Origin: a virus
Reading direction: 5' to 3' (one strand)
Length of the DNA stretch: 64,000 nucleotides
IMG/VR virus record: IMGVR_UViG_3300047462_000154
Location: 32,001 to 96,000 of that record
The first letter of the stretch is position 1; each line of letters begins with the position of its first letter. Position numbers and translations under genes: made by a program. The notes beneath the pieces are model-generated. The model was not told the origin of the DNA. It ran no database searches and saw nothing but the letters and a program-made list of their open reading frames with translations. Below are positions 26,554 through 30,347 of this stretch, piece after piece.

Positions 26554-26799
26554 ATGAAAATTGCTCAAAAACTCGCCCAAATCATCCAAGAACAAAATCT
26601 TTCCACTACTTTTATGTGGGGTGATGGTGTTATGGTTGATTTGGGATGTGCCGTTGGTTTTGAAGGGCATCCTTTAGACGTTATGGATAAAGTATGCCGT
26701 GCTTGCAGACGTTCTCCAGAAATATTTGAGCATTTTAAAGTTCATGGTTTAGATTCTCGTGGCAGAGAACGTGTTGTCAGTGCCTATAAATTAAAATGA
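26554..26799 (+). CDS. Hypothetical protein
   Basis: 81-aa ORF; TTGACA upstream. Confidence 0.6.
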   Translation: MKIAQKLAQIIQEQNLSTTFMWGDGVMVDLGCAVGFEGHPLDVMDKVCRACRRSPEIFEHFKVHGLDSRGRERVVSAYKLK

Positions 26800-26884: not shown

Positions 26885-27994
26885 TTGTTTTGCTTTAATT
26901 TGGATAATGAATTACGTCATACTTTTTTTGAAGGTGGTAGAGATATTCCCATGTCAGAAGAAGAACGTATTGCGATGCTTCGTGAAGGAATTCTCGGTGT
27001 TAAACCAAGCAATAATGGAATTTGGAAACATATTAATTCTAAAAAATTAGCATCAGAAATAAATCGCATGCATCGTAATGGTTCTTGGAAAACAAATGAT
27101 TTATGGAATTTTCAAGATTATGTAAAAGGCAGCGGAGGAATTAGCAGAGATTCTTCGATTGGTACAATTGGCGGCGGAAATCATTTCCAAGAACTGCAAT
27201 ATGTAGAAGAATGTATTGATAGAAAAACTTGTTATGATTGGGGAATTAAAAAAGGTTATGTGGCGATAATGGCACATACTGGTTCTGTTGATTTTGGAAG
27301 CAGTGTTGGTGGCTATTTTATGGATTTAGCCAAAGAAATATTTCCAAAAATTGAACATCCAGAACATGGTTTTTATCCTTTGCCTACTGTTGGAAAATTA
27401 AAAGATAATGGTATGAAATATTTGTCTGCAATGGGTTTGGCGGCGAATTTTTCAATTGTTAATCGTTTAATGCTTACAGAATTAACATTGCGTTGTTTAT
27501 CAAAAGTTTCTGGTAAAGAAATTACTGGTCATTTGGTATATGATGCGCCACACAATCTTGTTTGGAGTGATGCTGATTGTTGCACACATATACATCGAAA
27601 AGGCGCTACACCAGCAGAAAAATTTGATTGTGATGATGGATTTCCAAATGGTCATCCAGTAATCATTCCTGGTTCTATGGGCGATGCGAGTTATGTTTTA
27701 AAGGGCAATGGCTCACTTGCAAGTCTTTGCAGCGCACCGCATGGCGCAGGCAGAATAACGGCACGTGGAGAGGGCAGGAGAGGCGATATTAAAGAATTGG
27801 ATACTGTTAGGGTAATTACAAAAATGGACCCTAAAAAGGTTCGCAAAGACATTCGTGACGAATTGATTAAAAACTTAATGGAAGAAGCACCAAGCAATTA
27901 TAAAGATGTTATGCCAGCCATTGAAACGGTAAAAAATGCTGGTATTGCAGAACCAGTTGCGAAATTAATGCCATTGCTTACGGTGAAAGGATAA
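26885..27994 (+). CDS. rtcB: RtcB-family RNA ligase, N-terminally truncated
   Basis: GTIGGGNHFQE, AHTGS, APHN, HRKGAT, IPGSMG, SAPHGAGR and EEAPxxYK present. N-terminal D..H/DIGCG block absent; in-frame TGA at 26882. Confidence 0.85.
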   Translation: MFCFNLDNELRHTFFEGGRDIPMSEEERIAMLREGILGVKPSNNGIWKHINSKKLASEINRMHRNGSWKTNDLWNFQDYVKGSGGISRDSSIGTIGGGNHFQELQYVEECIDRKTCYDWGIKKGYVAIMAHTGSVDFGSSVGGYFMDLAKEIFPKIEHPEHGFYPLPTVGKLKDNGMKYLSAMGLAANFSIVNRLMLTELTLRCLSKVSGKEITGHLVYDAPHNLVWSDADCCTHIHRKGATPAEKFDCDDGFPNGHPVIIPGSMGDASYVLKGNGSLASLCSAPHGAGRITARGEGRRGDIKELDTVRVITKMDPKKVRKDIRDELIKNLMEEAPSNYKDVMPAIETVKNAGIAEPVAKLMPLLTVKG

Positions 27995-28058
27995 AAAAAT
28001 CTTGATTAAAATATTTTTATAATATAAATAGATTTCTCATTTCTTTGGAGTAAAAATT

Positions 28059-28232
28059 ATGAAAATCAAAACCATTAAGTTCGAAAACAATGTTGTTGCA
28101 ATTGAAACCGACGATAATAAATTTTCATTTTGCACTGAAAATCATTTGATGCTATTAAAAAGTGGTAGATATGTTAAAGCAAAATTTTTGAAAGAAAATG
28201 ATTTGCTTAACGATGAATTAGAAAACGTTTAA
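28059..28232 (+). CDS. 57-aa stand-alone partial Hint/intein-fold protein, not in ORF track
   Basis: MKIKTIKFENNVVAIETDDNKFSFCTENHLMLLKSGRYVKAKFLKENDLLNDELENV; block-B TxxH plus G.YV.A..L...D.L. GGAG RBS; TATAAATA at 28023-28030. Confidence 0.75.
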   Translation: MKIKTIKFENNVVAIETDDNKFSFCTENHLMLLKSGRYVKAKFLKENDLLNDELENV

Positions 28233-28247
28233 AATAATCGCGTTAAA

Positions 28248-29102
28248 TCACATAACATAAACTTTACCAATGGAAGCGCCAAGAAGATTTTCAATATCTT
28301 CTTCGGTGTTTTCTCTCATTGATACTAATTCAATATTAGCATCTTCTAAATTTGAACAACGATAATATTGTCCTTTATATCCTTTAAATATTGCAGGACA
28401 TGGATTAAATTTTATTGTTCCAGTAATTAAATATTGCGCAATTAATTCACAATAAAATTCAAAAAATGTTCTTAATTTTTTATCTCTTGCTGATTTGAAT
28501 GTTCCTATTTCTTGAACAAATTTTTTTAATGTTATAGGAATTTCTTCTGCATTTCTAAATAAAAAATAACTTGGTGGCTGATTTACAAAATTATGACCAA
28601 CATCAATTCTATATAATTTCATAATTTCTTTTAAATACATTTTAAAAGTTTTTGTAAATTTTTCAAATTCATAACTACCGTTAATTCCGCCTTTTCTATA
28701 CAATACATGTCCTAGCCTATGACCTAAAATCCAAGCTGTCATTGGCACGCGCTCTGAGCCTTTATTGTTTGTGAAAATAACATTGATTGCCTCTGGACTT
28801 AATAAATCATTAGAAGTTATTTTGCCTTCTTTGACCATTTCTTCATAAAATTTTGGCATATTTTCATAAAGCCAGTTTCTACCAACTTCCCCAACTTCGG
28901 TATGACGATTTGCTTCTGGTGAATTTACAAAATAAAAATTAAATGGAATGGTTGTATTCAACCATTGTTGTTTTATTTTTTCTTGTGCTTTTGGATTAGT
29001 TAATAATTTTCTATCTTGTTCTTTGTAAGAAGAATTTTTATTCCAGTTTCCATGTAGCGCAAAATCTTCGATTGGCGTTTCAAAAAGTTGTTTAATCAGC
29101 AT
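28248..29102 (-). CDS. Zincin-like protein with degenerate HRxxH motif and MLIKQLFE leader
   Basis: WILGHRLGHVL plus downstream EFYCELIAQYL helix. Confidence 0.55.
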   Translation of the reverse strand: MLIKQLFETPIEDFALHGNWNKNSSYKEQDRKLLTNPKAQEKIKQQWLNTTIPFNFYFVNSPEANRHTEVGEVGRNWLYENMPKFYEEMVKEGKITSNDLLSPEAINVIFTNNKGSERVPMTAWILGHRLGHVLYRKGGINGSYEFEKFTKTFKMYLKEIMKLYRIDVGHNFVNQPPSYFLFRNAEEIPITLKKFVQEIGTFKSARDKKLRTFFEFYCELIAQYLITGTIKFNPCPAIFKGYKGQYYRCSNLEDANIELVSMRENTEEDIENLLGASIGKVYVM

Positions 29103-29116
29103 TATAGAATCCTTGT

Positions 29117-29130
29117 GATAAATATTTATC
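29117..29130. promoter_or_regulatory. Palindromic bidirectional late promoter GATAAATATTTATC
   Basis: Perfect 14-bp palindrome giving ATAAATA on both strands, in a 30-bp gap between divergent genes. Confidence 0.65.
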
Positions 29131-29132
29131 TA

Positions 29133-30347
29133 ATGAACCTACAAGATATATTTTTAACTGAACAAAAAGTTTTGCCAAAGGTTTTTTACCATGGCACGCC
29201 TAACAAATTTGAGCATTTTGATTTAGATTTTATTGGTGCTAAAGAAGCAAAAGACCAAGATGGTCCTGGTTTTTATTTTACTGACAATATAGACACAGCA
29301 AGAGGATATGCTGGAAAAACTGGTGTTATTTTAAAATGTGAATTATTTCCAAGAAAAATTGTAAAATCTACTGGAAAAATAAATTTTAATATGGTAAATT
29401 TTATGATTAAAAATGCACCAGATTATCAATCCACATTAGAAAATTTCGATGAAAACCCAATCAAAGCTTTTAATGATGCAATTAGATTAATTGTAACACC
29501 AAATAATCCAAAACAAACGTTTGAACAAATTTGGTATGATTTTTATCGATATGAAGCAAAACAATGGGCAATAAACATGAGCAAATTTACTTATGATGCT
29601 GTTCTTGTAAACACACAAAATGGCGACACCCATATTATTATGTTAAATCCAGATAAGATAAAAATAATAGAACGTATTGCACCATTAAATGAAATAGAAC
29701 TTGGTGGTGGCGTATCATCAATTGATTTGGAAGATAAAAGAAATCTTGATTATAAAAATAAACAACAAGATTTGTTTCCAGAAATACCAACGATAGAACC
29801 AAACGTTCCAAGAGGTTATCAATATGTTGGTAACATGGGCGAATACGGAATTGTTAAGAAAAAAGACACTTATGACCATTATAATTATTATGGTAAAATT
29901 GAATCCACACATAATAGTTTTCAATATGTTTTCACGCATTTTGGTAAACCAATTGGTTATGTTTATGTTGTTGAAAATCCACCTATAGCTTCGCATTTGG
30001 AATTATCTGGAAAAGGATTATTGATCAAGCAAGTTTATATTGAAGAAGATGAACGTGGCAAAAATTTAGATTTAAAATTTTATTATTGGCTTTTGACACA
30101 TGTTTGTGATTATATTTTACCCGACACTACTCATACAGAAGAGGGTGCAAGATTATGGAGAAAATTGAATCAATCGAGATTGTTTGATATGTATGTGTAT
30201 GACCCAAGAACTGGAACGTCTCGTAAAAGATGGGCGGGAAAAGATTGGAATCAAATATATAATAACGATGATTTACAACCATTTCTTACATTAAAAGGTA
30301 GATATGTTGATTCAGATGAATATGAAAGCGAATTTGATGACAATTAA
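29133..30347 (+). CDS. Two-domain effector: ADP-ribosyltransferase fold (ART-PolyVal-like) plus GNAT-like domain, with MNLQDIFLTE leader (start reassigned from 29088)
   Basis: FYHGT, GPGFYFTD..ARGYA, YDAVL; linker APLNE; then IKQVYIEEDERGKNL..FY and T.EGARLWRKL. Confidence 0.65.
   Translation: MNLQDIFLTEQKVLPKVFYHGTPNKFEHFDLDFIGAKEAKDQDGPGFYFTDNIDTARGYAGKTGVILKCELFPRKIVKSTGKINFNMVNFMIKNAPDYQSTLENFDENPIKAFNDAIRLIVTPNNPKQTFEQIWYDFYRYEAKQWAINMSKFTYDAVLVNTQNGDTHIIMLNPDKIKIIERIAPLNEIELGGGVSSIDLEDKRNLDYKNKQQDLFPEIPTIEPNVPRGYQYVGNMGEYGIVKKKDTYDHYNYYGKIESTHNSFQYVFTHFGKPIGYVYVVENPPIASHLELSGKGLLIKQVYIEEDERGKNLDLKFYYWLLTHVCDYILPDTTHTEEGARLWRKLNQSRLFDMYVYDPRTGTSRKRWAGKDWNQIYNNDDLQPFLTLKGRYVDSDEYESEFDDN

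Follow-up and report, generated by a model that had tools for sequence, protein, structure and literature searches.

The locus described here raises the question of why a T4-like phage should carry a 57-residue open reading frame (ORF; P0001) that resembles the back ('N2') half of a split-intein IntN piece and stands as a gene on its own, and whether such a gene is debris or a product maintained by selection. The window, that is the whole stretch of 64,000 nucleotides that was analysed, comprises bases 32001-96000 of a 172,315-bp IMG/VR viral contig (record IMGVR_UViG_3300047462_000154) rated 39% complete by CheckV. Positions are those of the window except where prefixed by G000:C1, which denotes the contig. 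The contig is that of a T4-like phage, with a gp20-type portal, nrdA/nrdB and uvsX.

Position and expression signals of the ORF

The ORF runs from an ATG start to a TAA stop at positions 28059-28232 on the plus strand, as given in the ORF list, and its frame is closed nine codons upstream by a TAG within TATAAATAG. It begins 64 nt past the stop codon of an RtcB gene and ends 15 nt ahead of a convergent gene. The start codon is preceded by a GGAG Shine-Dalgarno sequence (28047-28050, plus strand) with an 8-nt spacer and, 28 nt 5' of the ATG, by TATAAATA (28023-28030, plus strand), a T4-type late-promoter-like element. An initial annotation of this DNA had drawn attention to a missed 57-residue ORF with both of these signals and a clean start and stop, and each of these features is confirmed from the sequence. 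A stretch of 490 bases including the ORF is letter-identical in the NCBI metagenome assembly GCA_024513685.1, and the order of genes at the locus is identical in the Logan contig ERR9963787; this recurrence indicates that the ORF is not an assembly artefact. Nor is it a fresh import, since its GC content (0.26) fits that of the phage (0.31). No hairpin masking the ribosome-binding site was detected at the ORF (fold z-score +0.82, unlike the Aeh1 mobE control), and no Rfam family, and hence no annotated intron, was found anywhere in the window. The open frame itself is a weak sign of selection, because just 5.4% of single substitutions in it yield a stop codon and about 39% of neutral copies are still open at 10% divergence.

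The overall count of TATAAATA is not enriched, with nine copies in the window against 13 expected; sites in the window include 7237, 11434, 13928 (minus strand), 28023, 39335 and 56477 (minus strand). Its placement is another matter. Over the whole 172-kb contig 13 of the 28 copies lie 0-45 nt upstream of gene starts, taken from crude ATG gene calls, as against 2.7% of all positions, and this strong placement before gene starts indicates that TATAAATA behaves as a late-promoter element. The spacing of 28 nt at the ORF is typical, the other copies standing 19-34 nt from their ATG. Judged by these signals, separate late expression of the ORF is plausible.

The convergent gene (28248-29102, minus strand) encodes a 284-residue protein that matches no family but has a conserved H-R-L/I-x-H motif; its three distant relatives, 33-43% identical, come from other viral contigs that differ greatly in GC content and gene context. 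The adjoining plus-strand region at 29088-30347 encodes a protein that opens with an ART-PolyVal ADP-ribosyltransferase domain (Pfam E 1.7e-12), followed by about 220 C-terminal residues without a family. This layout permits an explanation in which it is the promoter that matters and the ORF is an incidental leader, a late antisense transcript serving to shut off the 284-residue gene. The proximity of that gene on the opposite strand would suit such a role, as would the lack of any terminator-like site between it and the ORF, and the ORF is the sole plus-strand frame that the TATAAATA promoter can serve. A good Shine-Dalgarno sequence and an ATG at ideal spacing would, however, be superfluous for an antisense RNA, and the presence of an intact, well-conserved Hint fragment as leader would be left without explanation. 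Antisense control is for these reasons considered improbable.

Homology to inteins

The intein-like block B and G-x-Y-V-x-A motif noticed in the initial annotation reflect real homology, as found by phmmer, HMM and profile searches alike. The motif of the ORF reads C-T-E-N-H, followed by G-R-Y-V-K-A-K-F-L-K-E-N-D-L-L. An exhaustive phmmer search of 1.84 billion representative proteins returned 47 proteins at E<=1e-3 (best E 4.4e-10), although these whole-protein E-values are inflated, the matched proteins holding two to four inteins each. Nine of the ten matches examined bear the Pfam domains Intein_splicing or PT-HINT, several of them in T4-type portal proteins. The exception, P0033 (244 residues), was set aside, its score being the sum of weak identical repeats; the protein contains four exact tandem repeats of 56 residues, each scoring 8.1 bits against the N2 unit, and these repeats may be genuine or the product of misassembly. 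The best single stretch belongs to P0017 (36.5 bits, E 5.2e-6 for the whole library), which is 46% identical to the ORF over 48 ungapped residues and is its closest relative. P0017 is a gene for an N-extein and an IntN piece with its own stop codon, and its N-extein has no Pfam match.

More sensitive comparisons agree with these results. An HMM of the N2 segments of 42 inteins, from which the ORF was left out, gives the ORF 58.9 bits; the two working inteins in the portal gene of this phage score 76.4 and 50.5 bits, one above and one below it. When the ORF is aligned with the 42 intein segments (alignment A2), H29 shows no variation and T26, G36, A41 and L50 each reach 90% conservation or more; the ORF keeps all five. 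The check by profile search against Hint and intein families that had been proposed for the ORF produced matches to solved inteins (best 8ubs, 1.7e-8), and a language-model search also leads to Hint families. With alignment A2, AF2 predicts a fold of four strands (pLDDT 83.9). Foldseek matches this model best to inteins, at an rmsd of 1-3 A and with weak E-values, but these matches are not independent evidence because the alignment behind the model consists of inteins; the model from the single sequence reached a pLDDT of 58.7, and Foldseek on it was uninformative. Scans of the ORF against Pfam and PHROGs gave unrelated families at best (E 0.07 and E 0.11, respectively), and the best hit of a PDB sequence search had an E of 0.2. 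By the sequence evidence assembled here, the ORF is a genuine Hint/intein-derived piece.

The part of the Hint domain encoded by the ORF

The ORF starts 39-54 residues (median 48) past the Cys1 of the 42 aligned inteins and ends just past the L-K-x-N-D-S-L-M-P motif, which is the natural split or nuclease insertion point. Profile alignment places it on residues 53-104 of NrdJ-1, on 50-83 of Npu DnaE and on about 44-87 of gp41-1; over its whole length it covers about residues 50-102 of Npu DnaE and 38-88 of gp41-1, the gp41-1 mapping being accurate to about three residues. The C2 units of gp41-1 comprise residues 3-52 and 60-110 (bioRxiv 10.1101/546465). The initial annotation had taken the ORF for one symmetric half-unit of the Hint fold; this does not hold, as the ORF straddles both units: it takes in the final hairpin of unit 1 and the linker strand, and runs on through the first half of unit 2 as far as the split site. 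The M-K-I-K start, which had been likened to the beginning of IntC pieces, is a mere resemblance to the symmetry mate and aligns to a hairpin of the N-domain; an HMM of IntC gave the ORF no score at E<5. In terms of its alignment, the ORF is the 'N2' (back) half of a split-intein IntN piece.

Four elements can be followed along the ORF, all on the plus strand. Residues 1-19 (28059-28115) form a long beta-hairpin with a basic strand (K2, K4, K7) and an acidic strand (E16, D18, D19), and by alignment match the strand of IntN that forms a zipper with IntC's first strand. In gp41-1 this 'charge zipper' is formed by beta3 of IntN pairing with beta6 at the start of IntC (10.1101/546465). Block B follows as T26-E-N-H29 (28134-28145), a TxxH motif with the conservation seen in alignment A2. 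Residues 36-50 (28164-28208) have the pattern G-x-Y-V-x-A-x-x-L-x-x-x-D-x-L, align with '...DGSYxEAxxLKxNDSL' of inteins and represent the end of the N-terminal splicing domain. The last element is the acidic tail N-D-E-L-E-N-V with the stop codon (28209-28232), at the natural end point of IntN; residues 44-57 have a net charge of -4. This end point is shared, to within a few residues, by P0017 and 21 IntN pieces of the uvsX type.

The absence of Cys1, of blocks F/G and of an extein, which the initial annotation had reported, is upheld. The ORF has the TxxH motif of inteins and the canonical split-site end of IntN pieces; it has no block A nucleophile, no His-Asn of blocks F/G, no insertion in an extein, no N-extein and no IntC-extein gene nearby. 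As it lacks Cys1, blocks F/G and an extein, the ORF product cannot splice alone.

Inteins and fractured genes elsewhere on the contig

The contig is rich in inteins, every one of them outside the window. A T4-type portal ORF of 1500 residues (G000:C1:146909-151408, minus strand) holds two HNH-type inteins, beginning at residues 351 and 744, which belong to the same intein subfamily as the best database matches of the ORF. A gp55-like ORF holds one further intein. The guaC/IMPDH gene (G000:C1:104197-106282, minus strand) is fractured into an N-extein with a 105-residue IntN, broken pieces of a Vsr-like endonuclease, and an IntC with the C-extein; the IntC is acidic and 42 residues long, and the split intein is complete. 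This order is the one that Dassa et al. (2009; PMC2677866) described for 'fractured genes', and their list of host genes does not include UvsX. At the end of the contig lies a uvsX/recA-type 39-residue IntC with its C-extein (L005; G000:C1:171687-172223, minus strand). No N-piece or N-extein of uvsX is found on the contig, and exact 34-mer scans of IMG/VR and JGI metagenomes revealed nothing that extends the contig past uvsX; UvsX relatives in IMG/VR that seemed to cover the IntC proved to be intein-less. Two-piece uvsX/recA-type N-pieces with a full IntN occur at 21 or more metagenome loci (among L092-L131). Apart from guaC and uvsX (C1:104811-104197 and C1:172223-171687), which lie 44 kb and 111 kb from the ORF, the contig has no IntC gene, and it also lacks a PAAR-like host gene. 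The ORF has no paralogue in its own genome; its best other six-frame match has an E of 0.46, which indicates that it did not arise by recent copying of an intein of this phage.

At the locus itself, no parent gene or other intein debris is left. The RtcB gene upstream (26885-27994, plus strand) has a complete C-terminus. It covers the Pfam RtcB profile only from position 114 to 426 and matches only the last 280 or so residues of a 502-residue phage RtcB; because the matches cover the C-terminal part only, the N-terminal Asp/Cys metal-ligand block is missing. The N-terminal part of RtcB was not found elsewhere on the contig, nor was a close RtcB relative found in IMG/VR. An 81-residue ORF at 26554-26799 (plus strand) was considered as an RtcB N-piece or as an intein N1 piece and rejected (BLAST match E 2.7); a structure search of the Atlas relates it to HTH or winged-helix folds.

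The presence of IntC pieces on the contig bears on the idea that the ORF product is the middle part of a split intein that naturally comes in three pieces, in which a host protein would end in Cys1 and about 48 residues (N1 only) and an IntC-extein piece would complete the fold. The catalytic TxxH of block B, relevant only for splicing, is kept; the ORF begins at about the end of N1 and ends at the natural split site; the N partner of the IntC-uvsX piece would lie beyond the end of the contig; and three-piece split inteins have been engineered. The search for ORFs ending in block A or N1 only, which had been suggested as a check, yielded none in the 172 kb (about 39% of the genome) with two N1 HMMs (portal and uvsX type) and the Pfam families Intein_splicing, PT-HINT, Hint and Hint_2, the N1 HMMs being poorly sensitive across intein families, so that each misses the N1 of the other family. 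The uvsX locus L092, whose IntC is 63% identical to that of the phage, and 20 others carry a complete IntN of N1 and N2, the ORF is just 34% identical to the L092 uvsX IntN, and the guaC split intein is complete. A role as the middle piece is considered very improbable.

Other free-standing copies

A search for further free-standing copies, by tblastn and other means, had been proposed as a way of judging the ORF, and produced none in the collections examined. No orthologue was found in a word index of 5.8 billion clusters (searched at near and longer lengths, and returning only the ORF itself), in the 1.84 billion representatives searched by phmmer, in INPHARED phages by tblastn, or in IMG/VR. 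About 0.96 Mb of fetched loci, mostly phage contigs, contained no free-standing N2-only ORF; the N2 matches there all belong to a full intein or an extein-IntN piece, or else run off the end of a contig. A profile search of proteins of 30-100 residues returned ten short N2-like proteins, and the context of three of these was examined. P0050 and P0056 were dismissed as frameshift fragments of intein-bearing GyrB and NifU-like genes in long-read assemblies, and P0051 as cut by the end of its contig.

P0051 (L014:1-309, plus strand; a JGI contig) is an intein N-domain (the end of N1 with N2) that runs into the last 13 residues of an RtcB (…KQVVCVKG), has no blocks F/G and is adjoined by a DDE transposase, and looks like a degenerate intein in an RtcB gene. 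It is a second instance of an intein N2 fragment at the 3' end of an RtcB gene, which may be coincidence.

Possible self-pairing and pairing with IntC

A model of the ORF product as a homodimer scored 0.45 and reached the mark used for pairing, the best of three controls scoring 0.02; among proteins of solved structure, 20 of 30 same-chain pairs and one of 23 single chains reach this mark, counts that hold only roughly for a model built, as here, on a custom alignment. The runs share at least 98% of their contacts, and the pLDDT of the partner is at least 79. The predicted interface comprises residues 1-19 of both copies together with residues 44-50. These models hint at a foldable, self-pairing protein. 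The top contacts of the dimer (12-9, 13-8, 14-7 and 16-5) are in the register of the native intramolecular hairpin, and the modelled dimer may owe its score to a hairpin swap or to intein dimers of solved structure that the predictor had learned. The charges of the hairpin are self-complementary, residues 1-9 carrying +2 and residues 12-19 carrying -3. The hairpin is also charge-complementary to the uvsX IntC (residues 1-13, +6), and not to the acidic guaC IntC (net -10). This pattern fits self-pairing and pairing with IntC alike.

On these grounds the ORF could be a selected, late-expressed, intein-derived microprotein acting through its 'charge zipper' hairpin and acidic tail, a reading to which a fair minority of our expectation is assigned. 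Two modes of action can be envisaged. Either the product would form a C2 homodimer, in which the hairpin of the second copy would take the place of IntC in the Hint fold, or it would bind the basic first strand of an IntC piece, that of its own uvsX or of a co-infecting phage, and slow, time or block trans-splicing. The late-promoter element and the ideally spaced Shine-Dalgarno sequence are the ORF's own, its frame is intact with all structural positions kept, the fold predicted with the alignment is confident, and the homodimer score and hairpin charges are as such a protein would have them. The equivalent strand of the gp41-1 IntN, moreover, is the one that pairs with the first IntC strand (10.1101/546465). 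Against this, there is no orthologue in the collections searched, hence no sign of purifying selection, and the best contacts of the dimer are those of the native hairpin. T26 and H29 would not be needed for a role without splicing, and inhibiting the maturation of its own UvsX would come at a cost to the phage.

The initial annotation had named homodimerisation into a Hint fold, a middle-piece role and late modulation of other inteins in trans as possible functions. The most far-reaching reading of the present evidence combines such roles in a natural, separately expressed Hint fragment, made late and kept by selection, which would act as a C2-symmetric self-pairing core, through IntC pairing that tunes or blocks trans-splicing (of UvsX or in a rival phage), or, at the extreme, as the middle of a three-piece intein. 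Taken as a whole, this reading is rated as rather unlikely.

Possible origin as a leftover of a split-intein gene

The best explanation is that the ORF is the still-expressed leftover of a gene for a split-intein N-piece, which we give an even chance of being right; the choice between such a leftover and a selected pairing microprotein is about evenly balanced. The parent would have been a gene for an N-extein and an IntN that lost its extein and the first 48 or so intein residues, including the Cys1 nucleophile. The loss probably came about through a deletion, either internal or at the 5' end; the genome concerned carries several inteins as well as two fractured genes and the decayed remains of a homing endonuclease. 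The remnant would be a small gene that a late promoter still transcribes and that has a good ribosome-binding site. The ORF would be evolutionarily young, and its youth would explain why TxxH is kept and why the ORF scores like working inteins. By itself the peptide would be chemically unable to splice. If it is made at all, it would retain the surface through which the C-terminal half of IntN pairs, consisting of the charge-zipper hairpin and the acidic tail, and might adhere to an IntC-type strand or to another copy of the peptide without selection for pairing.

Several observations count in favour of a leftover. Homology is solely to the N2 segment, and the ORF ends at the split or endonuclease-insertion site, the position at which P0017 and the 21 fractured uvsX N-pieces also end. 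The contig is full of intein debris, the ORF lacks an orthologue, and TxxH is kept though now useless. T26 and H29 are retained and the HMM score falls in the range spanned by the two portal inteins, as would be expected if the ORF arose recently from a functional intein. Other observations count against it. The expression signals look 'too good' for debris, with the ATG right at the start of homology; for a leftover to possess TATAAATA and GGAG, these signals need to have been inherited through an in-frame internal deletion. The match in GC content, the homodimer model that reaches the mark and the lack of a parent gene at the locus likewise speak against a leftover.

Significance and comparison with known systems

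If the ORF is a relic, it offers a dated snapshot of the decay of a fractured gene, and a warning that debris can bear perfect expression signals. If it is selected, it would provide the first natural case of an intein fragment that acts in trans, could serve as a regulator or decoy of protein trans-splicing or as a self-pairing Hint piece, and might provide a small natural module for controlling split-intein tools. It would also be relevant to the long-standing proposal that smaller units paired to give the Hint fold. To our knowledge, inteins occur whole or in two pieces and always fused to a host protein, and we know of no description of a free gene for only the back half of IntN.

Three-piece split inteins were reportedly engineered by Sun, Yang and Liu in 2004. 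The ORF resembles these systems in that its product would be a free middle piece complementing two extein-bearing pieces, and differs from them in that they are artificial and in that no N1-only partner was found for it in 172 kb. The nearest natural systems are the IntN pieces of phage fractured genes (gp41-1, NrdJ-1 and IMPDH-1; PMC2677866) and that of Npu DnaE, with which the ORF shares the same back-half family. Like the fractured-gene pieces it has TxxH, the G-x-Y-V-x-A-x-x-L...D-x-L pattern, an end at the split site and an acidic tail, and it resides in a T4-like phage with true fractured genes and TATAAATA late promoters. Unlike them, it is without an N-extein, without Cys1 and block A, without the first 48 or so intein residues, and without an adjoining endonuclease or IntC-extein gene, and it has its own promoter and start codon.

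A further parallel is with parts of IntN defined in other split inteins. A capture-and-collapse model involving the 'N2' half of Npu DnaE IntN is said to have been put forward by Shah and colleagues in 2013. The ORF covers residues equivalent to this 'N2' half and to the beta3/beta6 zipper of gp41-1 (10.1101/546465), including the strand that pairs with IntC. The Npu DnaE and gp41-1 parts were dissected from a longer chain, whereas the ORF is a separate gene.
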